Positions 425 to 52,796 of a DNA stretch of 64,000 nucleotides are shown here, piece after piece. Each line of letters opens with the position of its first letter. The first letter of the stretch is position 1. The notes beneath the pieces were generated by a model, which searched no databases, had not been told where the DNA came from, and saw nothing but the letters and a program-made list of their open reading frames with translations. The position numbers and the translations under genes were made by a program. The stretch is from Paraspadella gotoi (taxonomy: Eukaryota; Animalia; Chaetognatha). The stretch is taken from positions 13,594,414 through 13,658,413 of the forward strand of contig CM119263.1 in NCBI GenBank assembly GCA_051294375.1. Reading direction: 5' to 3'.

Positions 425-3229
425 ATGCTCGTCAATGTCCGGGTCCTTCGTATTTTCGCGATCCTCATCTCTTTCCTTCGATCCTTCGCTCGATCGGAGA
501 CGATGTTGTGGCCGGAGGACGCGACGCACGTCCTCGTGAAAGACGAATCCTCGGGTGAGTGGAAGCGATAATACGGATTTAAAAAAATTGAAGAATTAGA
601 GTGTCAACGGAGTAAAATATATAAAATACAGGGAGGTCCAGCTATTTTCGGAAAAAGTTTATGTACTTACAGCTCGAGAGATGGGGGAAAAAAAAACCAT
701 ACTCTTTCGTTCAATACCCAATTTGACCAAAAAATCGTCCCGTCACTGTCTTAATTTACTCCTTTTGCGTGACATGTTAAATTTTTTTCGCGCCCTTAAC
801 AAAATTGGAGAATTTATTCAGTTCTCCTGACTGTGAACCCCTAGCCTTTGAGGAATGGGAGGTGCTCAAGCCAGAAGTCAAACGCGTCTCCTTCATAACA
901 TAACCGTCCACTTTCTGAAAGCGGCCATAGACATAGTGGTAGGAATCGAGGCTTTTCTACCAGGCAGTAGCTTGCTTAGCCTTTTATGGGTGCTTGCAAA
1001 AGGTTTTTGTCCTTATAAATTTTTGCACTTGAACAAATTCATCTTCAATTACAGTCATATTTACCAATCCAAATGAATTGTTTAATATTTTCCTAAAAGA
1101 GCTGGACCTCCCTGTATAAAATTGGAGGTATTCCTTGACAACGAAATCGGGAAGCGTCTCTATTTACTTACTCAACTTAACATAATTTTACTAAATCAGT
1201 AAATATAAATTACGGCAACCTTATGCCGGAACCACTTTTCCGATCAATGATAAATTTCTGAAAATAATTTCTCCTGGTTTTTGAGTTGGTATAACAGAGT
1301 GGCCAACTGGGATCAAAGCCATAGCGACGAAAACGTCGTCGCCACAATAGATAAATTTTCAAGTTTTTTAATCGACTTTTAACGTCGAATTTAGAAATTA
1401 TGCATCTTTCACAATTCACAATTCACCTTATCTTTTCGTAACTTACTCTTTAGATTCTCCAATTTTTCGCGAATGGCGAGAGGCTAGACTCACCCGCTAC
1501 CTTTACAAGGTGCGTGATAGACGCGGTTCCAAATTCCGACACGTCTTCCTCCGTAGAGACAGACTCTACAAGGACGAGCAGATCCCCGTGACTTCACTCC
1601 CGATGGGGGAAAGGGTTCTTGTCAAAGTTTTGGTCAATGCACCTGGGAAGATTATCAATTTAGCCAGTGAGTATTTTGGGGGTGGAGGGATCAAGTCCCT
1701 GTTTTATGTTTGTTTGTTTTTTATCGTCGGATGTCATACAAATTTTTACATAATTTAAAAAATTGTAATTTTATCATTGTTTACACTTCATTTTACCAAG
1801 TAACAGATCATTTTACGTAATTTAAAATATTGTTCGAAGTATATATGACGCAAAAATTTTAAAAAAGAGCTTGTTACGGTGATACCCTTTGCGTCGAAGT
1901 CATGTTTCTGAATCTGTTACGAAAAAACGTTAAGAAATTCATACCGTAATTGGGATTTAATGTTTCTGTAACAAACTTTTCTGTAAAAAGCATTTATTAC
2001 AGTGTTAATTCGATTATATTCACTTCTCGAGTCGAATCTCGCTCCAGACGAAGAATGCTCCAACGAATGTTGGCTGTCGGGAGTCGTCGTTGCCAACTCC
2101 ACGGGGTCCCACACGGTCGCCGTCAACGAGTCCTGCGTTCCCGACACGCTGGTCAAAGAGTTGGAATTCGTTCGACTCAACCACGAGATTCGGTTACATC
2201 CGGGGAGCCCGCGTTTCCGATCAAGAGTGAGAAAATCGTCAAGATACGGAGGGTAGAAGACAGATTGCTTCAGCAGCTTGGATCACTCATGATTGCCTTT
2301 AGGTACCTGAAGATTGGATCTGTCGCGGGAAAACCGTCCGGTTGAACCTCTTCTACACCAAAGACGACGCCGACGACGCCGATCCGTGTCGCCGCTATTT
2401 CCCCAGCGTTCTCGACGGATTCTACTACGAAGCCAAAGCTCGGAAATCGGTGGCCTTCACCCCCGGCGCCCGCCCCGGCACCGGCTTCCCCTCCGACGTC
2501 TTCGTCGCCCGCGTCAACGAGACGACCTTCGACAAGATCGTCCGCGACGCCGCCATCGAACCCTTCGCCAGCACCAACAACAAGTTCGTCCTCGTCCGAC
2601 GCGACAACGTCTGGATGAAGGGCCTCGTCCAGCGAAATCTCGAGATCAAGGGAGAAATGACGGTCTTGTTGGCGGAGACGTCGGAGCTCTCTTCCTTTCG
2701 CTACGAAGACATTCGTCTCATGGACGCGTTAGTGGCGCATCCTTGCGAGCCCAGAGACGATGGCGTCTTTCTAGGGTCGCCCACTTTCTTCGCCATCGTC
2801 GGCGGTGCCGTCACCGTCGTCGTTCTCGTCGTCGTCCTCGTCGTTTTTTCCTTCAAGCGGAGAGCGCGTCGACGCGAAGACGCTGCCGCTGCCGCCGCTG
2901 CTGCCGTCGTCCTGCGGGACCTACCCACGAATAAACACTGGGACGTTTTCTTCTCCTCCGATCCGCGGATCAGCCACGCATACGCCGTCATCGACGGAGA
3001 ACTGGAAACGCCCGTCGGGGGGCAGTATGAGACTCCGGGTGCCTCGCCGGGACCGATCTATCAGGAAGTGGAGACCCTGGATGTCGGCCAAGACGTCGGC
3101 CTTGTCGGCGGAAGGGTCGTCAAGGCGACAGTCAGTAACCCGTATACCAAGAAACAAGTCGATCCCTATGTGAGTTATTATAATGTGTAGTAGTAATCTA
3201 GAAGAAAGAAAGAAATAAAGAAAGAAATA

Positions 3230-3321
<92 letters not shown>

Positions 3322-3894
3322 AAAAAAAATAGAAGGGGAAAAAAGAAAGGTAGTTTAAAGAAAAAAAAGAAAAAGAAAATTCAGTCGAATAAAAAAAAAA
3401 ATAACTTAAACAAGAAGTCAATCAAATTTTCCCCTAATCTATCCCTTCCAAAGCAAATCGGATCCATCCATCTCCTCCAAGATAAAGACTACTCTCACGT
3501 CTTGCGAAGTTCCCAAGAGAATCTCGCCGAGCGAATCAACTCGACGACAAAGAGTCGAGACGACGCGAGGACCGCGGAGTCCGGCTACAATCGCTTGGCC
3601 GACGCGGGACTCCAAGCCGACGCGGGCGACGACTTCGACTACGAGTTCGCTGAAGTCGTTGGCCGAGGGAAGATCGACGGGCCGCTGGAGGGCGGATACG
3701 GGGGTGAAGTCTTTCAGGGCCGCGAAGATGACAACGACAGTTATAAAAGATTCCCGTTCAACGGCGGCAACTTCGTCGTCGACTATCAACGGCGAGCGGA
3801 CGATGCGAGTCCCCCGGAATCGCCCGTCGATTTGGCGGAAAACGCCCCTTCTCCTCGCTACACTCCAGTGGCGAGGAAGACTGAAACAATTTGA
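425..3894 (+). CDS. Orphan type I transmembrane protein A (~609 aa): signal peptide, Tudor/SH3-like ectodomain repeats, TM helix, Tyr-rich tail
   Basis: Phase-consistent GT-AG exons 425-554, 1454-1666, ~2048-2226 (in-phase alternative acceptors at 1991 and 2003), 2303-3169, 3454-3894; 1830 nt in total. N-terminal MLVNVRVLRIFAILISFLRSFARS is signal-like. TM FFAIVGGAVTVVVLVVVLVVFSF is followed by KRRARRR. Sequons NST, NES, NET lie before the TM. C-terminus is TETI. Confidence 0.8.
629..1114. mobile_element. Tc1/mariner-type MITE in intron 1 of gene A
   Basis: Terminal inverted repeats CAGGGAGGTCCAGCT...AGCTGGACCTCCCTG (extending to ~26 bp with 2 mismatches). TA flanks both ends (627-628, 1115-1116). 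No transposase. Confidence 0.85.
3201..3330. repeat. (AAAG)n microsatellite in gene A intron 4
   Basis: Direct reading. Similar tracts lie near 6100, 34110, 52750 and 60970-61130. Confidence 0.95.
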
Positions 3895-4715
3895 TTGATG
3901 ACGGATGATGATCCTGATTGATGATGGCGATGAGAATGACGATTTTGATGATGATGATTATGATGATCATGAAGACGATGAACACAATGATGACGACGAA
4001 TCACTAGCTTTAAAAAAATATTCTCTGTGGCAAACTTTTTTAGCTCAATTTTTTTTTTCTCTGATGTCTTAACTTGTTTGTCTTTTCGTAAAAGAGAAAA
4101 TTTTAAGAGAGAAGCTGAAACCTTGTTTGCGCTTTAAAGCCTCCAGCGAAAATTTTCAGGACTGTGTAAAAACATCCAATGATAACTCTTTTTTTTTTGT
4201 TTAATGCTTATTACTTNNNNNNNNNNAAAGTACGATAGTATAATTTATATTTAAATTTTTTTTGTACTTGTACTGATTCAATATTTTTGTGAGTTCCTTC
4301 CCCGACTCGTTCACATTATCTTTTAAAAATTAATTTCAGCTTAAAAAAAGTTGTCATCAAGTTTTTTGCTAGATTCAACACAAGATCTTAATGACGTGTT
4401 CTGTAGCATAATTGGCTATACACGCGACCAAATACGACCAACGAAAGTTTCGGCGCCCAAGCTTCCCCAAAACCGGTTTTCAAAGCAACAGTTTTCGACG
4501 TCTCAAGTAAATTTGATTTTAATTCAAATTTTTTAATGCATTTCCTCCTCACATTTTGTCGTCATTGATTTTAAAAAAACTGAATGAAAATCAAGGGTCG
4601 ATATTGTCATTAATATTCGGGCGCCGATTTCCGTTCCTAATTTCCTCCGCTCTGACTTTATTCCGAAACTCGACCCGTCGCGGTCGGATGTCGTGACTCA
4701 ACTTTTTCTTCACTC

Positions 4716-4768
<53 letters not shown>

Positions 4769-5289
4769 TTCTCTCTCTCTCTTTCTCTTCTCTCCCACTC
4801 CTCCTTTCGAATCCAGTCAAATTACGATTTTCTCCCCTCGTCCGAACCGCAGAGTTGACCAGATTACATTTACGCAAACAAAATTCTTCTCGATTTTAAT
4901 TCGCTTAGCGGAGTTTTCGAGTTCTCCGATTCTAGGCCTCTCCAGAAATTCCCCCTTTGGCCCCCTTTTTTTTTAAAGGCCCGACCCCTCAAATTAGAAA
5001 TTGAATTCTCCGTCAGAATTCTCTATTCCCGCTCTTCCCTTTTTTTTCCTTTTTTTCGCGTCTCTTTCCTTCCATCCCAGTTCCCCCCCCCCAGAGTTTC
5101 TTCCAGTAAAACTTTGTAAATGTAGACGAAGAAACTGATTCCTTTTTTTTATAATAAAGGAAATGATCTCGTGCGAACGAAACTGGAAAACTTTAAACTG
5201 GTGGGAAATTAAGCGACGACGAGGACAACGACGACGACAACGAAGGAGATAAGAGTCGAAAAACATTGTTTGCCTTCGATTCCCGCATC

Positions 5290-6122
5290 ATGGAAGCTCC
5301 TCCACTTTTTCATCGTCGCGAAATGTTTCTAAAATTTTTCTCCCTCATTGCCGTCGTCGTTGCGACGATGACAATGACGGCGACGACGACAACGATAACT
5401 CAAGTCATCGACGCCAACCAAGGACAATCGATTCTCTTTCGTTACCGAACCTACACTGACGGTCACGTGCTTTACAAGACGGGCGAGATGAACGGATACG
5501 CTTACAAGTATAATATATATATATCTATTTGAATTGTTACTTTATCTTAAGCTAATTTACGTAATTCGACAGCAAAGATACATTCATAAACCAATATTTT
5601 TTGCCATGTGTTCACATTTAACCTCAGGATTGTCGACGAGTTTGACAAAACGTTCAACTCTTACGGCGAAGATCATCTCTACGCTCAGCATCAGGAAACG
5701 CCGGAACGTCTCGCCGATGGATCGTCCGTCATCGTCCAACATGTCAACGGGACTTGGCTCGAAGGCGACGTCGAGGCTTTCGATAACGAACTCGACACTT
5801 ATCGAGTCAAGGTGCTTTTATTATGACAAGAAAATTAAGAAAAGGGGGACGTTGGACTGTGAAGGATTACGGGTTTTATGTAGAATGAAAATACTACTGG
5901 ATGACTGAAAAGAATAACTTTTATATATTTTTTTCTTTCTTTCTTTCTGAGGCGACTTACCACCGGTCTCACTCTCTAAATCTTTCTCTCTCCTCTTTCT
6001 CTCCGAGCCAGTCTATCCACACGGTCACTTTGCCTTAGAAAGAGCAAAGAGGAAGGGTTTATAGAGATTAGAGAAAGACCGGTGGTAAGTCGCCTCATTT
6101 CTTTCTTCTTCTTTCTTTCTTT

Positions 6123-6154
<32 letters not shown>

Positions 6155-8104
6155 TCATGACTATTATAGATCAGAAGCCAACAATAGACATTAGATAGTC
6201 AACAAAAGCAGAAATGTCTCTCTACTTGAAATGAAAAACACTCCTCAATCTACATCCAATTAGGTGACCGGCTGCGACGGCGTCCGACGCGTCGTTCATT
6301 CGAAGACCCTCCGACTGTCGCCTAGCAACGCACGCTTCAACGAATCCGAAGATTGGAAGTGCGACGCTGGAACGAAGAGCCTCGTCTTTTATCGTCAGCA
6401 CATCGGGGAGGGGTCGTGCCCGACGCTCCGGCTGGGAAAGTTTGAGGCCGTCCAGTTCGTGGTGAGGATGACGCCGTCGTTGACGCTGCGTTACGAGGAT
6501 TTGCGAGTAGGCGACGACAAGCACGTCGCCCTCGATCGAAAGAAGAATGAGGTAGGTTGAATCCGGAACAATTCTGTACAATTAAATTCTGGTCGTCATC
6601 GCATATCCTTTCCTTTTTGTTTCAGTACGAAATCGACGACAGCGTCCTCTATCTCAACACCTTTAACAAAAATTGGTTCTCCGGCAAAATAATAAACTTC
6701 CGCCTCGTCCCCGGTTTTTATTTCTACACCATCCGGGCGGACGCCCCCGGACACAGCCGTAACTCTACAATCCGCCTTCACTCCAACATCCCTGCCTCTC
6801 TCATCCGACCCTTGAACTACACCGTGGCGAGTCCCTGCCACACCGTCTCTCCCACGCCCACCTTGACTCCCCCTCCGGGCGCCATCCCCGCCGGCGCCAT
6901 TGCCGCCATCGTCATCGTCGTTTTCATCGCCGTCGTCGGCGTCGCTTCTTTCGTCGTCTTCCGCTTCTACCGCAAATCGGAGCTGAAGCGGAAGTCGCGT
7001 CGAACCCGGATGTCGGTGATGGCGCGAGACGGCGTCGTTCATCGTCCCGATCCGAGACTGGTCCTCGACGCCGGCGTCCCCGTCTGGACGCCCATGGCCA
7101 CGCCACAGCACCCGCCAACGCCGCCTCCCGCCCGACGAAAGATTCCCCGTCAGGACAACGACGACATCTACGCGGAAATTCGGGACAACGACAACAACTA
7201 CGCTCTCGTCAAGTACGACGATGACTCAGGAAAGGACGACGACGACGACGCTTTCTCTGTAGCCAAGACCGACTCGCCCGGTTCCGGGTGGCCCCAAGAA
7301 GCCTACGACGTCCCCGATCGATCCGGCAGCCGATATGACATTCCCGGCGCCCTCGAAGGCTCGAGGAACTCCATCAACGCGATGATGGCGGCGCTCGCAC
7401 CGACGCGCCCGGAAAATTGGACGCCGACTTCCTTCGCCGACCGGAAGTTCGCCTCCATGGCGAATCTCGACACCTACGATATGGCGCCGACGCCGACTCG
7501 CGACGCCGTTCGCAAGTCAATCGACCAACTTAACTACGACGTCCCTTCCTGCAATCGGCCTCGGAGGAAGCCTCCCGGCGGCGTCGCTGAGCCCGAGTTC
7601 GCGACGACGCCGCGATCGCGGAGGCGGCGTCGCTCGCTGCAGGACGTGCGTCCGCCGCCGCTGCCGAGGCCCAACCCCCCGCCGCTCCCGAAGGCCAACC
7701 CGCCGCCCCTGCCCGATTCTAACCGAAAACCCAGGAAACTAGTGCGGAAGGAGTCGAACCTGTACGCCGAGATCGACTTTAAACGGACGGACACGCCGAG
7801 CGGGTCAATCGGCGCCGGAATTGGACAAGAATCGGCGCCGGGAACCCCGGGCGTTGGGCGCGCTCTCTCCAAGTACAGCCAAGTTATGAGGGAATTGGAG
7901 GAACCTGTAGATTCGATGAACGGCAATGACGGCGATGACGACGACGAGTTCGAAGAAATGAGAGATCAGATTTCTCCGCCGACGGAGATGGCGCCTCTGG
8001 TGGAAAAAAAGGGAGAGAAAGTCGGAAGGTCACAGACGGTAAATCATGGAAAGTCCACAGGCAAACCCCCCATCTACGCTCGGGTTCGGAAATCTGTGTC
8101 GTAA
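5290..8104 (+). CDS. Orphan type I transmembrane protein B (~722 aa), paralogue of gene A, with YDxP/IYA/PPPLP-rich tail
   Basis: Exons 5290-5507, 5628-5811, 6264-6551, 6626-8104; 2169 nt, phases consistent; alternative ATG at 5323. Signal-like MFLKFFSLIAVVVATMTMTA. TM AIAAIVIVVFIAVVGVASFVVF is followed by RFYRKSELKRKSRR. Sequons NGT, NES, NST, NYT lie before the TM. Shares Y.YK..D...F...D.LY and RL.P...RF...EDW.C...L.FY blocks with gene A. Confidence 0.85.
5948..6097. mobile_element. Small (~150 bp) inverted-repeat element inserted in a (TTTC)n tract
   Basis: TGAGGCGACTTACCACCGGTCT at the left end and its perfect reverse complement AGACCGGTGGTAAGTCGCCTCA at the right end. Confidence 0.7.
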
Positions 8105-9860: not shown

Positions 9861-11737
9861 TCATTGAAATCGAGTCCCTTCCAATTTCCTGCCCGCGAAT
9901 CCAGATTTAAGGTTTGTGTCGATGTCCTCGCTCAACGAGTGAAGTTGGGAGATGAGGAAATCCAGTTTGGAAGCGGCGCCGGCATCTGAACCGGCAGAGG
10001 CGCCATCGGCGATGAAGGCGCGATCTTCCGGTGGCGACGAAATAAGCAAGGGTGTCGCTTCGGAACTTGCGATTGTTAGTACCTTGAACGTTCGCGGTTC
10101 TTGTTGTCGTTGTTGTTGCGACGTTCGTGACATTTCGCCGCCTTGGGCAATTAGCGAGACTTCGGGCGCGGAGATCGCTACCGGATATTTTAGGAACTCG
10201 TCTGGTTTTTCAATAGCCGCAAAAACGACGCCGTCCGAAACGGCGCGGTTTTCCGCTCCGCCGACGTCAACGCCGCTCCTTGCCTCGTTCTCGTCCGGCG
10301 CCGTTCGATCCTCTTCGATGTTCTTTTGTCCGAAGAGATCGAGGGATTTGGGGACGGCGCTTCGGTTCTCCCCCGTGTTTTTCCTCAATTCCGGCGTGGA
10401 ATACGAGGCGTCGCGCTTCCCCTTTAACGCTTTTCGTCGCTCGGGAGAGTCTTCCTCCATGGCGGCGTTGCGGGTTCGATCTGGGGAAAAGATAAAAGAG
10501 TCCTTAAATGTGAATCGCTTAACCGTCAATGGGAACTTGACAGTTCCATGATCTCTATTAAGTTGGTTAGATTAGTACATCACATGTGGGAAATAAAAAA
10601 CATACCTTCATTTAAGAGTAACATGAAATGGTTCAAAAGGGTCTTTATTCATAATAACTTGGTAGAAATACAAACATTTTAATCGATATAGATTTGACTT
10701 AATTTATTATTTTGTGGATGGTTACAACATTTGTAAAGGATATCCAAAATTTGTTTTCGAGAAATTAAGTTTTAATTTAATTCTAAAAAAATCAAATCTG
10801 CTCGATTCTTATGACCGCCAGAAACAGTCTAAAGCAACAAACACAGCGATGCTTCGTGGTAGTCAAAATCTTCGTAAATTATCTACATAATTGAATTACA
10901 TTCTTGAGTGATTGTTGAAAAAGCAAAAAGCGCGGTTTGAGTGAGTGTTAGCAATTGATAAAAGCCGTTGAGGAAATCGGGCAGCGCGAATCCAAGACTT
11001 CGCTTTCGAAGAGAAATTGAAACTGTAAACCTATATTTCTGAAAATCGGAGGACGCCAAAGGTTTTCTGGAAAGGGTGTAAAGCTTTTCGTGTTTACAAA
11101 ACAGTGAAAAGAAAGAGAAGAGTCGGTATTAAGTTGTTTTCTTTTTTCATCTCTAAAAATCGAGTTCGGCGAAATTTCGTTTGAAGATTCGCGTTTTGAT
11201 TTAGATTTGCCGGAATAAGAAACACATCTCGCCCGGAGTTGAACGCAAATCAAATCAAAACCCGCTAATTTCGCCACGAGATCACAGAGACAATTCACAC
11301 GACTCACGAGTGACTTTCTCGGCTCCGCCTCCGCCGTCATCGTCGGGCAGCGTCTCGTGGTGGTGATCCGAGTAGAGGGGGGTGTTGGTGATGTCGAATT
11401 CCACCTCCGACGCCCAACGCTCCTCCGTCGTCGCCGCGAGGTTCTTCAACTCGGTCTTTAAGCCTTTGTTGACCCATTCGGAGATCTTGAGGCTACAGGC
11501 GCAGATGAGCACGAGGATGACGACGAGCGGGATGATGACGTAACTGGCGTGCTTCGGCGGCGTCGGCGGCGGATCCGGCAGGACGGTCGGAGAAGAATCC
11601 GATTCCCGCTGGAACCGGCGTACTGAGGAACTGTTACCTGCGTTGTGCAATCCGTCGGGCAGGGGAAGAGTTGAAGTCGTTGTGATCAAACAAAATGAGA
11701 GGAAAACGAGTTTACGAATGAAAACAATCAGATGCAT
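9861..11737 (-). CDS. Orphan small type I membrane protein C (~349 aa)
   Basis: Exons 11737-11308 and 10480-9861, phase-1 GT-AG intron, 1050 nt. Signal-like MHLIVFIRKLVFLSFCLITTTST, then a ~40-aa Pro/Ser/Thr-rich ectodomain with an NSS sequon, TM YVIIPLVVILVLICACSL, and a long low-complexity tail. Confidence 0.7.
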
Positions 11738-12031
11738 TTCGTCGATGCGGCGGACCTTTTGGTTTGTTTCATTAAGTTCTTTTTTGTTGTTGTTGTAAAC
11801 CTCCAGTAATTAGCAGGTTCTTGACCGGTGTTCAGGCTTTTCTAATTCCTGCGTAATGTGTTTTCTGCTCTAAAATTGTTCTCGTTTTTGAGCGAACATA
11901 TAAGAGGATGCTATTATTCGGATCGAAAAAAAGAAATTAGTCGTCTTTCTTTATTTCTTTTTTTTTTCTTTTAGTTTTCGGTCTTCTTTGTTCGCATGAA
12001 AACGATGATATGAAGCACATTTTAAATTCTC

Positions 12032-12665: not shown

Positions 12666-14493
12666 AGCCGAGATCAAAACGGCGATAGGTTAATTATTGA
12701 TCACCTTTCGAGAATTTTATTTTTTTCGAAATCAATTCATTTCTCTTTTCGTTTAAGCCAAGAAAATAATTAGTCTTCGTTTCTCAATTTTCTGACATGA
12801 TAAACTTTTATTTTGACCCGTAAGCCCGTGCACATCCATGATCGGAGGAGGCCTGTCTGCTCAATGTTTTCATAACGGCTATTTGACTCATCTTTCAAAA
12901 TCAAAAATGAAATAAAACGAGTTACAAAGAGAAGCAATCGCCGAATGCCACTGGGTTATATTAATACAATGATTGTCAATCGCTCATGAAAGCAACTAAT
13001 ACGCCGAGCAATGTAAGAAGGGTATGAAGAAAATTACGCTAAATGGTGGCAGGAACGCTTTAAAATTCGTAAATGCACGTTCAAAATAACCGTTTTTGAG
13101 AAGAAATAATCTATTTCATAAAAAAGACTTGCAGCAGTTCAAAGAAAAATGAAAACGTACCGCTTATGCATAATTCAAAAAAATTTTTGCGTCAAATCAC
13201 AGATATATGGCAATAATGGAATAAATTTTTAAAGCTATCGCTAACGCTCTATGCTCCGTGCCTTTGCAGCATGACTTGCATGCTATTGATCGCCTTCCTG
13301 TACGACAAGACGAATTCGGAGCGATATCGCAGGATGGAGCGATCCACCAGAAAGCGAGTTTCGCAGATTTCGCCGAACGAGGAAGAATCGCACTTGAGAG
13401 AAAAAAAAGGAAAACAGATTTGTATATTGTATATTGTATAATGCAATTGAGAGCGGATTGCGTTTGAACACGAGAGCTCACTTCTCTATAAATGTGATTG
13501 AGCGCGATCTCGGGTGAAACTCGCTGCGGTCGGACGAACTCTTCCGAAATCGGAAACGCCTCTACGGCGTCGGATTCCATGTGAGAGATTCTGAGGAGAA
13601 TACTGGAGACGTGAAGTAAGATGCACAACCTACCTACGGACGCATCTTGGACTAGGACCTTACCTCTGGGTGTCGACGAAGCATCGGATATGTTCGCGGA
13701 TCGGCGCGGTCCTCGAGTAAATGTCAGCGAAGGGAACGATGTTCCCGATCGGTCGACGATAGACTTGGGGATATTTGGCATCGGCGAAGACCGCGCCGAA
13801 GAAGCAAAACCCTAGAGAGAGATAGAAAGGAGAAAGGTTATTCAGAGAAGAGAGATAAAAGGTTAGAAAATAAAGGAAGGAGGAGAGAGGGAGCAACGAG
13901 AAAACAAGAAAATAAAAGCGTTGAGGAAAATTTTCCGATTCTAAAAAAAATGTTTACACAACGCCACCAATTAGAAAAATTGATCCTTTTTTTCACACCT
14001 GAAGACTTGTTGGGTGCCGTTTCCGCCAATTCCGAGAAGAGAGAATCGAATTGAGAAAAGTCCTGAGGAACCAAGAGTTCGTGAGCGGAGGAGAAGAGGA
14101 GGAAGGAGAAGTGATAGAGGCTCGTGTAGAAACAATCCAGGTAGGCGATGGCTGGAAGAAGTTGACAGGGGTCATTACAAGTGAAATTTAAAAAAAACGG
14201 ATTATAATTTAAGAATATTTTTATAGAAATGGTACTTCAAACCAATTTAACTCAAACTTAATCCACGTTTGAAAACTATTATGCTTTATCAGTAAACCTC
14301 AGTGAATCATTCAATCAGTCTGTTAATCATTTGTCTAACCTTGAGCCGCTTTATAGACTTTCTTCTCATCGACGGGCAGATGCCAGGGCAGCTCTTCCAC
14401 GAATCCTTCCTCGTCGTAGACTTGTAAGATCTTGTCGACACTCTCCGCGGTCATCAGATCCTCGCTGAGAGATCGAACTTGGACGATCACATT

Positions 14494-14550
<57 letters not shown>

Positions 14551-17509
14551 ATATGGTCAGGTTCTCAATATTCATTAAGGCGTAGTGAAAGTTACATACG
14601 AAAATTCTAAAAGTCAATTATGAACAACATACCATCAGTGAACATTAATTTGTAAAAAAAATTAATTTTATGTTTTTAATTTTCGCAGTTGGCTATATTT
14701 ATATATAGTACTATCCTTATAAAATCGAAAAATTTTAAAATAGGCTTTTCTTAATTTGATTGCAGATTTGAATTCCTCGTCAAAAGTTGATATAAGAAAA
14801 TATAAATCATTTTTAAAAATTCTTTCATTAAGTGGGTTAAAAATTAAAAAACTATATTTAATATATAAAAAGTTATTTTCAGCTTAAAATATAGCTTTTT
14901 CTAATTTTTGACCCACTTAATGAAGGAATTTTTCCAAAAGAGTTATATTTCTTTTTATCAACTTTTTATGACGAATCCAAATCTGCAAAAAAATTTTAGA
15001 AAAAACTGTTTTGAAATTTTAACATTCATTGGTTTAGTACTAGTATAAATATGGCCTACTCGTAAATTGTAAAATTTATTATAAATTTTTTTTATACATA
15101 AATGTTCATAAGTATAATGTTGTTCGTTCCTCACTTTAGAATTTACGATTAAAGTTAAACTTAGGAATTTTACTACGCCTTAATATTCATGTTCCTCCAA
15201 CATTACAATACAGAATGTTTAACTAACCTGTACTCCCAAGAGCTTGCTCATCTCGACGACCTGTACTATCTCCGACGCCTTCGTATTTCCGTCCAAAGGC
15301 GAAAGACAAACGGCGAACGTCTTTTGTTCGCCAATCGTCGCCGCCGGCTTCTTCCTCGAGAGGCGTTGGCGGTCGCGTCGGCACTCGGAGAGGAAGTTGT
15401 ACAGAACCCATCAAAGATCCCGAATCTAAGTTTAGATTGAAAAATTTCTTGAAATTACAAATAAAATTGAATATTACTAAGTACTGTGCTGAAACGAAAA
15501 ACAAACTCTTGCTTGAAATTTAACAAATCAAACGTGAGGTTTCTTACTAAAATGTCTTCAATAACAAAAGATCGGATTTTGATTTTCGAGCAAAGTACGC
15601 TCAAGGCCTTTGGTATATTTCGACTTGATTGAATTTTTTTTTGTTCTACAGTGTAAGAGTCGTTCGCTCACTGACATAAAATTTTTACATGTTTAGCCGA
15701 GATCAAAACGGCGATAGGTTAATTATTGATCACCTTTCGAGAATTTTATTTTTTTCGAAATCAATTCATTTCTCTTTTCGTTTAAGCCAAGAAAATAATT
15801 AGTCTTCGTTTCTCAATTTTCTGACATGATAAACTTTTATTTTGACCCGTAAGCCCGTGCACATCCATGATCGGAGGAGGCCTGTCTGCTCAATGTTTTC
15901 ATAACGGCTATTTGACTCATCTTTCAAAATCAAAAATGAAATAAAACGAGTTACAAAGAGAAGCAATCGCCGAATGCCACTGGGTTATATTAATACAATG
16001 ATTGTCAATCGCTCATGAAAGCAACTAATACGCCGAGCAATGTAAGAAGGTATGAAGAAAATTACGCTAAATGGTGGCAGGAACGCTTTAAAATTCGTAA
16101 ATGCACGTTCAAAATAACCGTTTTTGAGAAGAAATAATCTATTTCATAAAAAGACTTGCAGCAGTTCAAAGAAAAATGAAAACGTACCGCTTATGCATAA
16201 TTCAAAAAATTTTTGCGTCAAATCACAGATATATGGCAATAATGGAATAAATTTTTAAAGCTATCGCTAACGCTCTATGCTCCGTGCCTTGCAGCATGAC
16301 TTGCATGCTATTGATCGCCTTCCTGTACGACAAGACGAATTCGGAGCGATATCGCAGGATGGAGCGATCCACCAGAAAGCGAGTTTCGCAGATTTCGCCG
16401 AACGAGGAAGAATCGCACTTGAGAGAAAAAAAAGGAAAACAGATTTGTATATTGTATAATGCAATTGAGAGCGGATTGCGTTTGAACACGAGAGCTCACT
16501 TCTCTATAAATGTGATTGAGCGCGATCTCGGGTGAAACTCGCTGCGGTCGGACGAACTCTTCCGAAATCGGAAACGCCTCTACGGCGTCGGATTCCATGT
16601 GAGAGATTCTGAGGAGAATACTGGAGACGTGAAGTAAGATGCACAACCTACCTACGGACGCATCTTGGACTAGGACCTTACCTCTGGGTGTCGACGAAGC
16701 ATCGGATATGTTCGCGGATCGGCGCGGTCCTCGAGTAAATGTCAGCGAAGGGAACGATGTTCCCGATCGGTCGACGATAGACTTGGGGATATTTGGCATC
16801 GGCGAAGACCGCGCCGAAGAAGCAAAACCCTAGAGAGAGATAGAAAGGAGAAAGGTTATTCAGAGAAGAGAGATAAAAGGTTAGAAAATAAAGGAAGGAG
16901 GAGAGAGGAGCAACGAGAAAACAAGAAAATAAAAGCGTTGAGGAAAATTTCCGATTCTAAAAAAAATGTTTACACAACGCCACCAATTAGAAAAATTGAT
17001 CCTTTTTTTCACACCTGAAGACTTGTTGGGGCCGTTTCCGCCAATTCCGAGAAGAGAGAATCGAATTGAGAAAAGTCCTGAGGAACCAAGAGTTCGTGAG
17101 CGGAGGAGAAGAGGAGGAAGGAGAAGTGATAGAGGCTCGTGTAGAAACAATCCAGGTAGGCGATGGCTGGAAGAAGTTGACAGGGGTCATTACAAGTGAA
17201 ATTTAAAAAAAAACGGATTATAATTTAAGAATATTTTTATAGAAATGGTACTTCAAACCAATTTAACTCAAACTTAATCCACGTTTGAAAACTATTATGC
17301 TTTATCAGTAAACCTCAGTGAATCATTCAATCAGTCTGTTAATCATTTGTCTAACCTTGAGCCGCTTTATAGACTTTCTTCTCATCGACGGGCAGATGCC
17401 AGGGCAGCTCTTCCACGAATCCTTCCTCGTCGTAGACTTGTAAGATCTTGTCGACACTCTCCGCGGTCATCAGATCCTCGCTGAGAGATCGAACTTGGAC
17501 GATCACATT

Positions 17510-20361: not shown

Positions 20362-23300
20362 GATAAGGTCGATGCTGCAGGTGGAGGTCGAGGAGGGACG
20401 CTGCAGGGTGATGACAAATGAGGAGGATCGACGCGAGAGCGAGTTGGGAGATTTCAATGAATTGAGATAAAAGAATGAGCTATGGACCAAGTCAGCGATT
20501 AGAATTACTGGGAAGGGGTCAAAATTTCGTGTCATCGAGTGGTTTTTGATGATATTCGAAGTGTGGTTTTAAGAAAATGATTTAATCTGAGTTTGAGTGC
20601 ATTTTTATTTTTAAAGAAATTCCGAAGAATGAACGACAGTTCTTAGAAACGCTCGTCGAATAGCGAGATTCGCTAAACAGGATCAACGTCAACGAAGCAC
20701 GCAAACCCAGAGGTTGTTTTTTTCCGGCGCTCGATACAAAGTCAAAATAATCTCATTGGCAACAAAAGAAAGATCGATGTGATCGGCGAGGTCGAACCGA
20801 CCAGAGTCGTAAAGTCAAGACGAGGTGAGTTGATGGATTGACGATCGAAGCTCCGAGAAATAAAATACACCCTTTTCAAAATTGTATGGCGAAGCCGCCA
20901 ATTTTGAAAAGACGATGAACTCAAGTTAAACGACGACGACGACGATGACGACCACCGGGGCGGAGGCGTCGACGATTCTCTAAAGCACACCCCTCTCTCC
21001 CCGCAAAAACAGGCTGAAAACCAGTTCACGTCAAAACGAAAGGAATTATCGCCGAATCTCCGAATTCGTTTCTTCGAGAAACCAGACGCCCAAGGGAGTC
21101 GACGGTTGAGCGAGGGATGGCGAGGTGACCGGGTATTTCCCGGGTTCGAAACCGGGATTTGACCAAATTGCTTCGTAATTTGTTTTGGTCGTTTTTATAC
21201 TGCGTTGTTTTTCTTCCTTTGAAAAATTAATTCGGGGCGAGACGGACGCCGTATTGCCGGATTGACCGGAAAGCCGAGAGTTGTAGCCTTCAGAAAACTG
21301 ACTTATCACAACGTCCTGCACGCCTTCCGGTCGGGCAACCACGCCAACCAGGCCGAGGAAGAACTCCTCTAAGCCGAAAGGAAAATATTTCGGTGGGTCT
21401 CCTCTCACCCCACCGTCCCTCCCTCTCTCCCACTGATCTTTTTTTTTTTAGAAAGAATTATGAAAAGAATATATTTTGGCGAAAGGCTTCGACGTTGACG
21501 ACCACGAGAAGGAAAAACCCTTCCTTTTTTTTTCCTAAAATTAGGTTGTTTTTTTTTTTCTCCTTTTTACGTTTGTTGCTTTTTTTCTTCAAAAGTTTTA
21601 TATCAAAGGTTTAAGGCTTATGTTTTTTTATTACATAAACAATAACTATTTAGATTAGTGGTCTTCAATTTTGTATTTTTTTATATTTTCTACTCATATT
21701 TTCCAACAATTTTATCGCTAGTTTACTAAATTTTATGCCCTTTCAATTGGTCCTCGGTCGGTTTGTTGAGTGAAAGGTTTTTGTCACTCATTTTCGCGAC
21801 ACGTACTACCCACGCTAGGCCCCCGCACTATTTGGTCCAAAAATGAGATTTTTTTATTCTCGACTTCGTGGCTCCGCAAATTTGATTTGTTTCCGACGCA
21901 GAAATGACTCACGCGTGGCAGCCGTTGCACCGTTTCCCCGGATCAGCAGGTAGCTGAAAGATGCAATGCTCGTTGTTGCAACGAGATAGGAGCGAACCAA
22001 TTTCCAAGCGTTTGTTTTGTTTCTGGTTTGCGAGTCATGGATGTAGTTCGAACAAGTAGGGGGTCGGAGAAAGGAATCCATGGGCATTGCGAGTTTACTC
22101 AGGCAGTCTTTTGTTCGGGAAAGCCGCATCAGAGAGGTTACGCGAAAAAAAAAATGATAACGCCGTAAAAACTAGGCAGATTATTCATTTTGCACTATTC
22201 CAAGGACTTTTGCATTTTTTCTTCCTATCAAATTAACAAATAGACTTTCATAAGCAGTGATTTTTTCACTGTAGTCTGTATCTATTCAACTAATTATTTA
22301 CACATTTAGATTTTCTTAAAAAAATATTTTTATGGAAAACGTTTTAAGTTTTATTCAATAGTAATTACAATAAAATCAAAGAAACAAGTCAATTCGTATA
22401 AATATATTAATAAAGGTAATGATAATTCACGCAACTACAGACGCCATACTGTTTATACAAAATCTTCGGAAAATAATTTATGAAGTACTTTTCAAAAAAT
22501 CTACTTCAACGCTAAGTATTAAAATATCGTAAAACACGACATAGCGATGTTTAGGCATATAATTATAAATAAGGCGCGCTTGCGAAAATCTATGTATTTA
22601 TTTAGGCGTAAACGGGTACGAGCAGCAGAAAAAAATAAAACAATGATTGATTTATTGCAGAAAAAAGTCGACATATTTTTTTCTCAAATAAGGACGTAAT
22701 TATTAATACAGTAAACTGTTTTTGTCTTGGGGGAAAAAAAATTTTATGGTTTCCTAAAAAAAGCTAGCGACGCGTCGATGAAAATGCACTTTTGGTGAAT
22801 TAATGAATTCATTCAGTTGTCAGTAGAAGCCTAGAAGGCTCTAATCTTTTTTATTTATGCGTAAAGTTTGTAAAAAAAGTCAAACCCAAGTTTTAAATTT
22901 TTCATTTAGTCAAATAGTTAACCAGTCAACTCTATCGGGTCAATAACGTTTTTTTTTTTAAAAATGATATGAAATGATATGACGTGAAATTTTTACGAAT
23001 CATAGGTTTTCAATCTACTAAGCAAAAAAGGCAGAGAGAAAAGACAACGAAAAACTTGAGGATTCGCCCGTATAACAATTTGGAATAACGAAAACCAAAC
23101 AAATGCATAATAATGTTAATCATAATACGCCCTACTAAGACTCAACTACTTATGTGTATGAGCTGGCCGGATATATTTCGAAACCGTCGGCGGAGACGTT
23201 TTCCTTCTGGTCTGGTTTATCATGTTAAAGATTATAGTTGTAATACTCTGTCGCCAATTAACACGCGGAAAGGAACCCGTGGTTATCTTGGTTCAATCAA

Positions 23301-23505
23301 ATTTGAAATTTTTCTACAATTTCCTTTGAAATTCTCCCTTCGATATTGTTTCGAACCATGTTTCAATACATCTCGTACAATCTTTAGAACAATTTTTTTT
23401 TTTACGTTTCAGGTCGAGAACAAAAACAAATTAGTCGAAAGTACATGTCTTGAAGCAAAGTTCCAAATGAATGTTTCTTATTTTTTATTTCTTATTTATA
23501 GAGAC

Positions 23506-26500
23506 TCAACCCTGCGCGTGCATTTTGTCGAGAATCGGGAGGATCATGTCGAACTTGGGTCTTTTCGACGGATCCTCGTTCATGCAGATGCGGATCAGTT
23601 TGGTCATGTGGGGCGATAGTCCGGGGGGAATTGGGAGACGGAGTCGTTCCAGCGCCACCTGAGAGGAAGACGAAAAATGAGACTTGAGACAAGTGGCGTC
23701 TCTTTGGGATTTCGTTTCATCAAGATCTTCAAAGTTGTGCATTGTGTGTTTTTTTTCATGAGGCTAATGAAAATAAACATTTTTCTCGGTTTTTACTTAG
23801 AAATATCATAATAAAANNNNNNNNNNGGGGCTAATGAAAATAAACATTTTTCTCGGTTTTTACTTAAAAATATCATAATAAAATGTCCGTCCTCGATTTT
23901 TCGTAAAGCCCTTCTTATTCCATATGAGCAATCCCAACATTTTTCCGGTTTTGTAACTCAATTTTCCCCGTGTGCCCATGTTTTTATGACATACTTTCAT
24001 GCCGATTTCCATGTTCGACAATCCGGCGAAGGGGACTTCCCTCGTCTGCAGTTCCCACAACAAAACCGCGAAACTCCACATGTCGGCCGCGCGAAGATTA
24101 ATGTCCGAGGGAGCCTTCTGCATCGCTGAAGAAAAGGAAAGAAAAAAGTTGCGATTTGGCTGTGACGAACGTTTTAAGAACCATCTGGATTCGGCAAAAA
24201 TATTCGATATTATATCTAGTCCAAACCGAGTGAAATGAAGCTGAAATTGCAATATGGGGTTAAAATAATGATTGAAATGCCAAGAGGTGGAACAAAATGT
24301 TTGAAGAAGAAAGAAATATAATGAATTTCTCGCGTTTGATTAAGTGAAACTTGGTTGATGTGATTTTGAAAGGCGTTTAAAAACATTCCGCATATAAAGG
24401 GGAATGACGTGAAATAAAATAAAGTTAAAGAGAAGAATGTTTTATAGAAGTAGTGAACAAAATGAAGGACAGTTCGTTCAAAAGACTTGTCTGGAGAAGG
24501 GGCAAAGAGGGTTCGGCGGGAAGAGAAAAAGCGTGAAACTGAAAAGAAGCGAAACAAAATTGATGGAGGAAGAAAGGACTCGGGAGATAAAGTGGCTCCA
24601 ACGATACTCAGCAGCTATTTTTAGAAAAGAATGGTTGGGCAATATTCATAGAATACTTTCGCTTCTACAACTAAATGGAGATTCTGTGTAGCAAACAAGT
24701 TAAAGACGGATGAAGCTGAAAAAGTAAAGCATTTTCCAACCTTATCAAGTTTATTTACTATAGATATATAAAAAAGGGAGAAAAACCCATTCCGTCAGTT
24801 CCCAAGATATAAAAATATAAACACACACATAAAAAGAAAATAGTGTTATACTATAAATTTCTAGGCGATATTTCCATTTATATCTCGATCCCATATTTTT
24901 TCGTGAATAATAAACGGGTTAAGCGCCTGAGACGAAGCTACTTCCTGGATTAAAAATGCATCCCAGAGCCATTTCGTGATAAACTTTAGGCAAAAAAAAA
25001 AGCGACGCCCCACTCGTCCGCTTAATCGCCCCACTTGCCCGCTTAATCGCCCCACTTGCCCGCTAAACCGCCCCACCCGCTTGACTTACCCTCCGGCGCC
25101 AGCCACGCGGGCGCGTAGTGTTTTCCTCTTTCCTGAAAGGAAAACTTGGCGTCGCCCATGTTGATCCGGGCCGTCAACTCCTCGTCGATAAGAACGTGCC
25201 TGCCAAAGTAACGACGAAAAGTAAACAAAAACCCTCGTTTCCCTAGCGACGTGCGACTCAGAAAAAGTGAATAGAACCCCTCGTAAACAAAACGCAGCTG
25301 GTGCGCTCTTTTGGGCTCTCCCCATCCTACACTTAAGGGGAAGGACCGAAAAAGTTTCAGAAAAATAAAAAAAGAATTATACTTGGTGGTTAAAGTAGGT
25401 TAAAGTGGTCACTTTTCAGTTTTATCCTTCTGTAAACTTTTAGCATTCATTAATACATAATCCATATACAAAGAATAAAATATACATAATATATTATTTA
25501 TCATAATTTTTTCCGGGAAAATACATGCGATGCAGTGAAAACGAGATCATCTCTGTGAGTAAAGATTCTAAAGTTGTAAAAGAAATTTCGATCTTATGTA
25601 TAGTATTATATGTATACAATATATATTATATAAGTACTTAATCTCTCTCTCTCTCTCTCTCCCTCTCTCTCTCCACGAACCGGGAGGTGAGTTGGAATCT
25701 TTGGATAAGGGGATCGAGCGAGTGGAGGAAAGCCATCCCGCCCGCGATGTCAATGGCCAACTTCAACGCCTGAGCCTGATCCACCAAAAGGCCTGCAAAT
25801 AGGAGACAATTATATCTCTACAGATTTGAACAAAAACATCCCATCCGTGGACTTTTCTACCGCGGCCAAGCACTGCGTGACGATCTCATTACCGGTTCCT
25901 TCGTGAAGGATGTTGAAGAGCGAGCCGTTGGGCATGTACTGACCGATCACCACCAGATTCGGGGGCTGCGTGCAGGCGCCGATTACAGGCAACACGTTTT
26001 GGTGCGAAAAAATCCTGGAAAACGTTTGAAAATAATTATTTTTATAACTCTGTAAACCTCGTAAACATTAAAGGATTTGCTGTAGTCAATATGAATTAAA
26101 CAACAGAACATATTAATCAAATCAATCGACATAAAAATGACCACAACCTCTCTCCACTCGCCTGAGTCTCGGGTATTCCTCCTGAAAGTCCCTGACGATC
26201 CTTTGGGTGATCTCGCGAATGTTGAGGATCTTCGCGGCGATGTCCATCTCCTGCCAACGACCCTTCCAGAGGTCGCCCGACGCGTTCGACGCCAGGCGAC
26301 CCTGCAGGTTGAGGCTGTTGATGTCGATGCCGGAGTGTCGAGAGAGAGTCGCGTCTTTGAAGGAGAGTGGATTTTGTCGGAGCGAAGAGTGAAAAAGGGA
26401 GAGGGGGTGGAAGTTTGGTGGAAAGGATAAAAAAATTGTTTTTAACATCGGGAAAATAAACAAAAGAATAATGCTTATCTCTCGGTTGAATAAATAAAAG

Positions 26501-26515
26501 GAAAGTTTAATGATA

Positions 26516-26605
<90 letters not shown>

Positions 26606-28288
26606 ACGTAAGTTTTGGCGAAAGTTTTTCAAATGTTTTATTGACATGAAGGGAGTTGTTGTTTTAACTAAAAAGATCGACATGCTATAAGCTAAGAATA
26701 AACTACTTTACGAAAAAAGGTAAACTTAAGGTAACAATAAAATGAATTTGTGAGGATGTATCGTTAATGGTCTTTACCTCCGAAAAAAGCTGAGGGCAGA
26801 AAAGCAAAACAGAAAGCGATTAAGCAGAATAAAGCGAATTAGTATTGCGCTGCTCTTAATTTTTAATGTTTAATTAGTTCGACATTTAGGGTCGAAATTA
26901 ATCCTATATCAAAAATATAAAATAGAAAAAATATAACAGAAAAGGAAAAAGGTCAATTAGGATTGGAAATAAAATAAATAAATAAATAATAAAAGGTAAA
27001 CAAACAATTCATTTTCTACCTCAAACAAATAACTCAACCAAAAGAAAGGAAAACAAACAATGTCGAGAAATAATTAATATGAAGAGGGACTGAGTGACAG
27101 AGAACATACGGATACGTCGGATATGCAATCAGTCAGAAGAAACGGCCAACAGACAGACAGACAGAAAGACGACATACAGACAGATGAAGGAGATAGCCAT
27201 CTAATTTTAGTAAAAAGAGACAAAAAAATTAAGATTTAAAGTAGATTAAGGGCAAGTGTGGGAAAGGCCTGTGGTAAGTCGACTTAACTGGATAAAACCA
27301 AATGTCAAAATATAAGAATGGACCCGGAATAACAAAGCGGACCTTCCCATCCCCGATAACATCCAATGCTCACTCGATCTCAATGTCTTCGTTCCCCTCC
27401 AGTTTTGATCCTTGAAGGCGATGACCCCACATCCTGCCCCAAGCGTTTACCGGCCTTTTCGGTGAGGGCGGCCTTGAGGCCCGGACGGGCGCGATCCAAG
27501 AGCCGTCTGCCCGTATTTGGTTGGCGATAGATGACAGGGCGCCCGTGGTGGACGAGGTTCTGCGATTAACGAGAAAAATGGGGATATAAGCGTTAAATTT
27601 AATACTAAATATAGAGAGATTTGAAATATTTTGAAATAAACTGAAATCTACATTTCGTTTTCATTTTTTGAACATTCGCAATTTAACCGGCCTCCAATAA
27701 CCAGCCCGTCGAGCACCTCGGCCAGCCTCTCGTGGCCCCAAAATGCGGCGTAGTGGACGGGAGTGTTGCCGTGTTCGTTGGCGGCGTTGACGGAAGCTTT
27801 GTTGGCGAGAAGAAGCGCCGCCACCTCCTCGCGTCCCAGCGACGACGCCAAGTGCAGCGGCGTGTCGTCGCCCATGTTCTGCGCGTTGACGCGGGCGCCG
27901 CGCTGCAGCAGCATCTCGCAGATGTTGAAGTGACCCTCGCGGGCGGCCCAGTGGAGAGGAGAGAATCCGTGGTCGTCGCTGAAAAGGAGGATAGAGTTAT
28001 TGACTATTGAGGAACTTGGTTTCTTGATTTATATTAGTTTTATTAATTGCTACACAGAATTTATCAATATTCACTTCCCTTCTATTAAGAACTTATTTTA
28101 AAAAATTTACATTTTATGTGACAAAAGATTTAAAATACCATCGTTTACTTAAATCTAATTGATTCGATTGATTTGATTTGATTTGATTTACGGTCTTACC
28201 CTTGATTCAAGTCATTTTCGATGTTGTCCAGCCAAACGCGAACGTGAAATGCGTTTCCTTCTCTCACCATCGAAAAAATGTCCTCCAT
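23506..28288 (-). CDS. ILK: Integrin-linked kinase (ankyrin repeats plus pseudokinase)
   Basis: Exons 28288-28200, 27978-27717, 27559-27374, 26354-26162, 26014-25893, 25792-25681, 25199-25090, 24125-23995, 23658-23506. Motifs MEDIF...[88 protein letters not shown]. Exon 3 carries several apparent 1-nt indels. Confidence 0.97.
23762..23884. other. Assembly gap with a ~55-bp duplicated overlap on both sides
   Basis: GGCTAATGAAAATAAACATTTTTCTCGG... occurs immediately before and after the Ns at 23817-23826. Other gaps are at 4217-4226 and 18753-18777. Confidence 0.9.
25004..25085. repeat. 21-bp minisatellite (~3.5 copies) just after the ILK exon 7 donor
   Basis: CGCCCCACTTGCCCGCTTAAT unit with variants. 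Confidence 0.85.
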
Positions 28289-51200: not shown

Positions 51201-52748
51201 TTTTTGACGAACAAATACAACACGCAACCTAAAACAATATATTTATAAATATTTAATAAATCACAGTATAATATTAATTTAAAACCATTTAATATATATG
51301 TATTAGTTACAATACATTTATTTTCACGGTTAGGACAAAATCCACGAGCTGGAAGAGAAGTATCGAAAAGCGATGATCCAGATTGCTCAGCTGGACAACG
51401 AAAAGCAGGTGCTGTTGTACAGGGTAGATCTCTTCCAGGACAGGATGGAAGAGCAGGAGGAGCGGACGGCAGAGTACCAGCGCCTCAGCCGGGAGAAGAA
51501 GCATGAGCTGGACTATCAAAAGAGAGTTTACGCCGACCTGGAGAACGTGCTGACCTATCACAAGGCCATGCTCAAGCAACGAGACGACATTATAGCGGTG
51601 AGAACGCACTTGAACCACTAGTCTTATTCTATTTTGAAATAATAAATAGAAATATTTTATACTGATGGAAAATGATACGAAGAAGCAAGGGAAAGGCAAG
51701 ATGAGAACTTGTTATGTTTTTGTTTTGTGATAGGATGGAATGGTGATTGAACATTTTTTTGTCTCCAGAATCACGGATTCGTCTTCGTCGGCGGCGAACT
51801 CGTGGACGACGAAGAGGCGATCGCCGAAGGAAACGAAGGAGCGAAGAAACCCGGGGCCGCCGCCATCTTGACGCAAAAGGCGGCCGCCATGTTGGAAAAA
51901 TGTGGAGAGGGATCGTTGGAGGCGAGGCTGAGGTAATTGGATAAAAAACCTGTTATAATTTATATGGAAACGAACAAGATGCACCACAACCCATATTATT
52001 GAAAATAACGTCCAACGTTAGCGTTTCACGCTTCCTGAATATTTGTTTTCATTTTTTTTTTTTTTTTGCTCTTTCTTTTCTTTTATTTCTACATATTGGT
52101 TACCGATCCGCCGTTTTTCTTTCCCTTTTTCTGTTGCTTTCCCTACAGAACCCTCCCTACCTCATTTTCTGTCAACCTTCATTTCGTTTCCTTGTCTTGC
52201 TCACCAAATGCAAGCGCATCTTCGTTACCGCAATTTTTTGCTCCACGATCGTCATTGCCAACTGTCGTAAGCGCCTAAGCGCCCATTCTTCCCTTCCCTC
52301 TTTCCCTCGCTCCAGAAAATTCGCGGCTGAGAAAGAGGATCTCCGCGAGCAGATCCGCAAGTTAAAGGCGGACTTGGAGAGCGCTCGAGGGCGCGGCGGA
52401 TTCACGAGCCTCGAACCTTTCCTCAATCGGCACGACTCGGCCCACTCTAACATGAAGGAATACACCGATGCTGGACGTGAGTAGGGGGCGAAGAGGGATG
52501 CGGAAACAGTGAAGGGAAAAAAATGGCGGGAATATTTTAATTGCATTTTGGGGCGAGAGTGAAATAACCGGTTAGGGTTTGTTATAGTTACTGTACAAAA
52601 AGTCCCTCGAAGCCTGGAATCGGAGGTTGTTGAACTGAGACTGTGGGAAAATAAAGTGAAAATGTACTAAGAAATAATTTAACCTACAGATTCATCACGT
52701 GCTCATCGCAGAATTCGGACGGGAACGGATGAATGAAAAGAAGGAAAA

Positions 52749-52796
<48 letters not shown>

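Follow-up and report, generated by a model that had tools for sequence, protein, structure and literature searches.

Can a Tudor fold serve as the outer part of a cell-surface receptor? This question is raised by two adjacent genes, here called A and B, on the same strand of a stretch of 64,000 nucleotides from the chaetognath Paraspadella gotoi (GenBank assembly GCA_051294375.1, contig CM119263.1, positions 13,594,414 to 13,658,413 of the forward strand), which is referred to as the window and in whose own numbering positions are given. A first-pass annotation made from the sequence alone had described the two genes as paralogous receptors with apparent extracellular Tudor/SH3-like repeats. 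We propose, with a probability of roughly 0.55, that A and B, both spliced and paralogous, are membrane proteins that act as surface receptors with a single membrane pass and no enzyme domain, and that they carry four Tudor-fold barrels, devoid of the usual aromatic cage, outside the cell. The parts of this reading differ in strength: a non-cytosolic Tudor-fold array is very probable, and a plasma-membrane receptor with phosphotyrosine output is slightly favored. It is an even question whether the two proteins represent a new class of animal surface receptor in which four disulfide-linked, cage-less Tudor barrels offer a new ligand surface and are wired to phosphotyrosine signaling. What would be new is the receptor-like architecture; its fold is known.

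Gene Structure and Paralogy

The window DNA is eukaryotic, with GC-rich exons and AT-rich introns, and both genes of the first-pass annotation are present. All seven GT-AG introns of genes A and B are skipped in two contigs of sequencing run X1, one contig per gene. X1 is presumed to be RNA; the introns are missing from its contigs, which are therefore taken to represent the spliced forms, and in this way the junctions that had been left to RNA-seq were joined in all seven cases. Runs X2 and X3 gave coverage of low-complexity stretches only. Gene A comprises five coding exons and a product of 609 amino acids, gene B four coding exons and a product of 722 amino acids, neither with an internal stop. 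The earlier models were right in there being two genes and had to be amended for gene A: its exon 5 (3454-3894) had been overlooked, exon 3 really begins at 2048, and the stop at 3190 lies inside intron 4. The features of both genes, named by protein and unit number, are as follows.

425..554, plus strand: gene A coding exon 1, leader (about the first 25 amino acids) and strand 1 of unit A1; X1 contig, contig start 284
1454..1666, plus strand: gene A exon 2, remainder of unit A1 plus strand 1 of unit A2; X1 contig
2048..2226, plus strand: gene A exon 3, remainder of A2 with Cys118, 122 and 144 and sequons N131 and N141; X1 joint 1666/2048
2303..3169, plus strand: gene A exon 4, A3, A4, transmembrane segment and start of the tail; X1 joints 2226/2303 and 3169/3454
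2318..2506, plus strand: unit A3 (amino acids 180-242), the least certain unit; homology to B3, cysteines match
2567..2719, plus strand: unit A4 (amino acids 263-313), modeled as a five-stranded barrel of Tudor type that lacks the aromatic cage; AlphaFold2, Foldseek, VIA
2783..2854, plus strand: gene A transmembrane segment (amino acids 335-358), followed by a basic cluster; hydropathy, charges
3454..3894, plus strand: gene A exon 5, coding part, remainder of the 251-residue tail; X1 contig, 3' untranslated region (UTR) to at least 4619
5290..5507, plus strand: gene B coding exon 1, leader and most of B1; X1 contig, contig start 5143
5628..5811, plus strand: gene B exon 2, last part of B1 plus strands 1-3 of B2; X1 contig
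6264..6551, plus strand: gene B exon 3, last part of B2 followed by B3 (6360-6509), with Cys138, 167 and 186; X1 contig
6626..8104, plus strand: gene B exon 4, B4 (6626-6811), transmembrane segment (6887-6967) and 377-residue tail; X1 contig

The paralogy assumed from the start was borne out by alignment of the two ectodomains, which gave a z of 6.7 (1000 shuffles) with 39 of 127 residues identical; as judged from this alignment, the ectodomains are homologous and the genes paralogous. No intron position is common to A and B. Introns may have been gained after the duplication of a gene with few introns, or the lineage may turn its introns over quickly.

Repeat Units and Predicted Fold

Each ectodomain was divided by eye into four units of 50-73 amino acids. 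The four units quoted in the first-pass annotation were all found in the sequence at their stated places, so that the claim of repeats holds, the number being four per ectodomain rather than two. Pairwise tests between units reached p<0.05 in 9 of 28 pairs (best p=0.004, uncorrected), and the units aligned poorly when all of them were aligned automatically. The repeat signal is clear only in an anchored leave-one-out profile with anchors placed by hand, in which the score of 7 of the 8 units was reached by 0 of 300 shuffles. Among 1582 six-frame pieces, no further copies of the unit were found within the window beyond A and B. The spacing between strands 2 and 3 is 9 in all four odd-numbered units and 12-16 in all four even-numbered ones, which suggests that a two-barrel module was doubled (the hairpin is short in units 1 and 3 and long in 2 and 4). 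A test of one ectodomain half against the other was marginal within each protein (p 0.03-0.04), and profile-profile comparison of the halves was not significant (E 0.11).

The five weak Pfam matches on ectodomain units all belong to small beta-barrel families and all remain under the Pfam cut-off: Tudor_KDM3B on exon 3 of gene A (E 0.079), PTM_DIR17_Tudor (E 0.074), Hfq (E 0.036) and LSM12 (E 0.077) on exon 2 of gene B, and Agenet on exon 4 of gene B (E 0.17). The Tudor/Agenet scores on exon-sized pieces were 12.8-13.3 bits as compared to cut-offs of about 27. NCBIfam returned two sub-threshold rows and nothing more, no sequence search of the PDB, whether with window pieces or with alignments of them, gave a match under E 0.49, and weak PDB matches to SH3 domains (E 0.7-1.2) covered two strands.

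Unit A4 was modeled by AlphaFold2 with a predicted local distance difference test (pLDDT) score of 86 as five strands, the last of which is preceded by a short helical turn. The input was a seven-row alignment of window pieces only; outside Tudor repeats were kept out of it because their use would have been circular. The top Foldseek rows for this model were the Tudor domains of PHF19, PHF1 and MTF2 (template modeling score 0.82-0.89, probability 1.00, E 0.006-0.02, root mean square deviation 0.7-1.7). In VIA (48,161 chains) PHF19 ranked first (Z 9.7, root mean square deviation 1.4, 53 aligned) and MTF2 next (Z 9.5), and the lower ranks were mostly PWWP, Tudor, chromo-barrel and KOW domains. 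Among the fold matches listed by Foldseek and VIA, entries of classical SH3 domains and of the MOTH family (MIA, Otoraplin, TALI, TANGO1) were absent, from which no exclusion of either follows, and A4 shares at most 24% identity with the Tudor matches listed. The AlphaFold and Foldseek comparison proposed in the first-pass annotation thus returned, when run on A4, a Tudor-type barrel with Polycomb-like Tudor domains as top matches; the Tudor/SH3-like fold claimed earlier is supported for this modeled unit, one of eight with a confident model, and is carried to the others by profile. Hence A4 is a predicted five-stranded barrel of Tudor type, and for the remaining units we infer the same fold from their sequence profile. 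Fold likeness alone says nothing on function.

In PHF1 the aromatic cage is formed by W41, Y47 and F65 (PMC13087805). At the equivalent positions of the window units, which were set from PHF20-type alignments, aromatic residues occupy only 4 of 24 places; no unit has more than one, and A4 has none. The units are therefore not methyl-Lys/Arg readers of the usual kind. By this alignment they are predicted Tudor-fold modules that have lost the usual methyl-lysine cage and are not to be classed as Royal-family readers, and with the cage missing, a continued role in methyl-Lys/Arg reading is not supported.

Membrane Topology

Hydropathy gives each protein an N-terminal hydrophobic leader and a single strong transmembrane segment. 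The 15 residues on the C-terminal side of this segment contain six Lys/Arg in A and eight in B, as compared to one and none on the N-terminal side. The N-terminal side holds three of five sequons and all six cysteines in A, and four of five sequons and four of five cysteines in B; four cysteines occupy equivalent places in the two proteins, within two residues. Since a leader is combined with a basic cluster on the C-terminal side, the repeats are placed outside the cytosol. Judged from hydropathy, charge, sequons and cysteines, A and B fit type I proteins with a non-cytosolic N-terminal part. The signal peptide-like leader, single transmembrane segment, C-side basic cluster and ectodomain sequons and cysteines described in the first-pass annotation were thus recovered in both genes, and the same placement supports its assignment of the Tudor-like units to the non-cytosolic side.

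Tail Motifs and Proposed Mechanism

The tails comprise 251 (A) and 377 (B) amino acids. They had been described as tyrosine-rich, a term that does not suit a composition of only 12 tyrosines in A and 10 in B. The tail of B is proline-rich and contains three YD[IV]P, three [IL]YA[ER][IV] and three PPPLP motifs, and that of A contains one YxxP and one IYQEV. Six YxxPhi motifs were found in A and five in B, as well as one motif resembling an immunoreceptor tyrosine-based inhibitory motif (ITIM) in each tail; immunoreceptor tyrosine-based activation motifs (ITAM), NPxY, C-terminal KKxx and dileucine motifs were found in neither tail. In motif terms, the tails carry SH2-type motifs. A parallel is offered by p130Cas, whose phosphorylated YxxP arrays bind Crk-family SH2 domains (PMC12071665). 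B shares with p130Cas-type docking the YxxP motif (in its three YD[IV]P) and a proline-rich block; p130Cas itself is cytosolic and has 15 YxxP motifs, and the likeness is one of motif, no sequence homology being claimed.

We propose that the four units arose from the doubling of a two-barrel module and that disulfides, for which Cys144, 181, 203 and 322 of A and Cys138, 167, 186 and 301 of B are the candidate partners, would staple the four barrels into a compact head, which may bind a protein or matrix partner via a surface other than the cage. Ligand binding or clustering would lead Src/Abl-type kinases to phosphorylate the tail, which in turn could recruit Crk/Nck-type SH2 adaptors (through YDxP in B) as well as proline-binding modules (through PPPLP), and this recruitment might feed into adhesion or cytoskeletal signaling.

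Relatives in Sequence Libraries

Neither a close relative nor a description of the two proteins was found in protein and literature searches, which agrees with the earlier claim that no described family accounts for them. Word-indexed protein searches with the ectodomain parts of exon 4 of A (lengths 507-2000) and of exon 4 of B (270-861) gave nothing at E<=1, the ESM Atlas gave no usable match for A3-A4 or for library protein P0006, and pattern scans with A3-A4 of prokaryotic genomes and of viral and metagenome contigs gave no relative. Each of these is a weak negative, library-scale sensitivity being so low that pieces of A fail to detect B. With the same low sensitivity, the library, the ESM Atlas and the genome, viral and metagenome scans yielded orthologues of neither A nor B, and no bacterial chromo-like relatives were seen among the library matches described next or in the prokaryotic genome scan.

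A profile of window pieces run against 1.84 billion proteins gave seven matches at E<=0.001, three of which are tandem Tudor proteins and four bacterial Ig-like repeat proteins, the class of P0001 being assigned from a repeat that it has in common with P0003 and the other six being classed directly. A Tudor hidden Markov model (HMM) from which the matched seed proteins were left out scored 20.9 bits on the B ectodomain, a value reached by 0 of 500 shuffles. Profile-profile comparison gave E 0.00019 (probability 47.6) for the Tudor repeats as compared to 0.08-0.74 for Ig-like rivals, whose HMMs scored at most 6.7 bits on the A or B ectodomain.

Two of the Tudor matches are proteins with a leader, repeats and a transmembrane segment, and their expansion led to 22 proteins (P0002, P0006 and P0015-P0034; Pfam PF21743), referred to here as the Tudor-repeat membrane family. 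The transmembrane segment lies near the C-terminus in 22 of 22, and 15 of 22 have a leader, the others looking truncated; the two named members are proteins of the diatoms Pseudo-nitzschia heimii and Nitzschia. PF21743 has been grouped among SH3-like Tudor families (PMC11836899). At two cage positions lying outside the search pattern, aromatic residues make up 99% and 100% in this family, which makes the family, with its diatom members, a candidate extracellular methyl-amine reader as far as its sequences tell. In the literature searched, which comprised listings and abstract openings and few subscription papers, no description of extracellular, secreted or luminal Tudor/Agenet receptors or of the diatom family was found. 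These membrane proteins, together with P0011 and P0012, mostly have three to eight PTM/DIR17-type Tudor repeats on the leader side and short tails. A further cluster, P0007 (with P0013 and P0014), is eukaryotic, has five to six tandem Agenet/Tudor repeats and scores best against the eight-unit profile, at 34 bits; P0007 is a fragment in which a leader or transmembrane segment is not visible.

Weighing of the Evidence

Several results speak against cage-less Tudor barrels on a signaling receptor. Pfam gave no match above its cut-off with exon-sized ectodomain pieces, all seven library matches, the four Ig-like proteins among them, reach their scores by adding up weak repeats, none above 14 bits, and the seed-free Tudor HMM left A undetected (-0.3 bits, 41 of 500 shuffles). 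Unit A3 failed the leave-one-out test (38 of 300 shuffles). Confident modeling is confined to one of eight units, and there the other four AlphaFold2 models of A4 scored 66-71, the ends of the fragment were picked to agree with our register (up to 330 end sets were screened and one close variant was used), and no Foldseek row came down to E 0.001. A single-sequence model of A3+A4 reached pLDDT 38.8, and its Foldseek run was uninformative. With regard to the tails, A has a single YxxP and no PPPLP, and short tyrosine motifs can arise by chance, there being no orthologue by which to gauge their conservation.

Among the alternatives, the one that survives best, although it is unlikely, keeps the fold and topology and would make A and B luminal cargo or sorting receptors of the secretory pathway, with the tail tyrosines as sorting signals. 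TANGO1 is a precedent, being an animal membrane protein with a non-cytosolic SH3-derived barrel whose luminal domain binds collagen (PMC10119292), and the YxxPhi motifs of both tails and the proline-rich tail of B could be understood in this way. However, neither tail has the C-terminal KKxx or dileucine signals. Moreover, the repeated YD[IV]P and [IL]YA[ER][IV] motifs of B resemble SH2 sites more than sorting signals.

Less likely still are immune or self/non-self receptors under diversifying selection, the recognition role that the first-pass annotation had considered fitting. A and B are tandem paralogues with about 30% identity in their best-aligned part, no relatives were detected in the searches above, and each tail has its ITIM-like motif. 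Contrarily, comparison of the window with the X1 contig detected no differences in the 993 leader and ectodomain bases of gene A and nine substitutions in 725 bases of its 3' UTR, which is the direction opposite to the one expected from a recognition role; one amino-acid change was found in the tail. In gene B, the itemized changes are two in the tail, both synonymous, and one in the 5' UTR; this is not a clean count, since further mismatches, six in the first piece and one in the third, are unlisted. This one haplotype comparison lends no support to immune-type variability, and a single comparison is no measure of diversity. Furthermore, the window holds two copies only, and ITAM are lacking.

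It is improbable that only some units are Tudor-like and that the remainder, or the whole ectodomain, adopts another beta fold such as an Ig-like one. The share of Ig-like proteins among the library matches (4/7), the failure of A3 and the seven units without a confident model would point that way, whereas the Ig-like HMM scores and the profile-profile values given above favor Tudor. An Ig/FN3 beta-sandwich was rejected as a candidate, given that it takes about 90-100 amino acids as compared to 50-73 per unit, that A4 was modeled as a barrel, and that Ig-like HMMs stayed at or below 6.7 bits.

Very improbable is the idea that the barrels would still read methylated amines (methyl-Lys/Arg or choline-type) outside the cell. 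The nearest structures are methyl-lysine readers, and the cage is kept in the Tudor-repeat membrane family and in secreted bacterial versions (PMC5906684), but the near absence of aromatic residues at the cage positions of A and B argues against it. Least likely of all are cytosolic repeats, with which nothing would have been relocated, as in the lamin B receptor and plant PTM, whose Tudor domains face the cytosol: in the leader of A the hydrophobic core is short, and the topology was read from hydropathy and charge, yet both genes have a leader and a basic cluster C-terminal of the transmembrane segment, with cysteines and sequons on the N-terminal side.

Comparison with Known Systems

The predicted A4 barrel is like the Polycomb-like Tudor domains of PHF19, PHF1 and MTF2, and the tandem layout is like that of the tandem Tudor/Agenet proteins 53BP1 and ADCP1; all of these are nuclear and possess an aromatic cage, whereas the units of A and B are cage-less and lie ahead of a transmembrane segment, with sequons and cysteines. 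Secreted bacterial tandem chromo-like domains were contrasted by Kaur et al. with the intracellular eukaryotic ones (PMC5906684). Like the units of A and B, they are non-cytosolic, occur in tandem (2-6 copies) and in some cases have disulfide-type cysteines, although they keep the cage, which A and B lack, and are often fused to peptidases (PMC5906684).

In the MOTH family, an SH3-type barrel of animals was moved to the non-cytosolic side, gained disulfides, was stripped of its original binding site and acquired collagen IV as a new ligand (PMC10119292). MOTH domains derive from classical SH3 domains, whereas A and B have four units, best structural matches of A4 that are Tudor-type, and a tail with tyrosine motifs. 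MOTH proteins have one domain each.

The Tudor-repeat membrane family (PF21743) shares with A and B the leader, tandem Tudor repeats and one transmembrane segment, and shows weak profile similarity to B2 and B4 and no detectable match to A. Its repeats are acidic and keep the cage, and its tails measure 23-111 amino acids, in contrast to the cage-less units and the much longer tails of A and B. The earlier statement that no standard receptor class has this architecture therefore needs to be narrowed: no described family was found, but non-cytosolic barrels of SH3 fold have precedents in the secreted bacterial proteins (PMC5906684), the MOTH family (PMC10119292) and the Tudor-repeat membrane family.

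Animal receptor ectodomains draw on a limited set of folds, to which a Tudor-fold ectodomain would add one, in parallel to the move from SH3 to MOTH. A and B would provide a small, expressible pair for studying the way in which a reader fold that has lost its pocket comes to bind a new ligand, and through the diatom-containing family, whose cage appears to be kept on the extracellular side, the reading of methyl-amines outside the cell can be tested directly. If both readings are true, the Tudor fold would have reached the cell surface in eukaryotes on no fewer than two occasions.

Other Features of the Window

A third spliced gene (9861-11809, minus strand, joint 10480/11308) codes for a small protein with one membrane pass, whose leader is followed by a short, Pro-rich outer part and whose tail is long; neither a Pfam match nor a Tudor-like unit was found in it. 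An integrin-linked kinase (ILK) gene with many exons and ankyrin repeats lies at about 23000-28030 on the minus strand, its kinase part matching solved ILK at E 1e-15; its proximity to A and B is no evidence of a link. Exons at about 51300-53400 have a weak LRRFIP match (E 0.004, under cut-off). Positions 13197-14236 and 16308-17018 are near-identical copies that share their long frames and probably represent a repeat or what is left of a mobile element.

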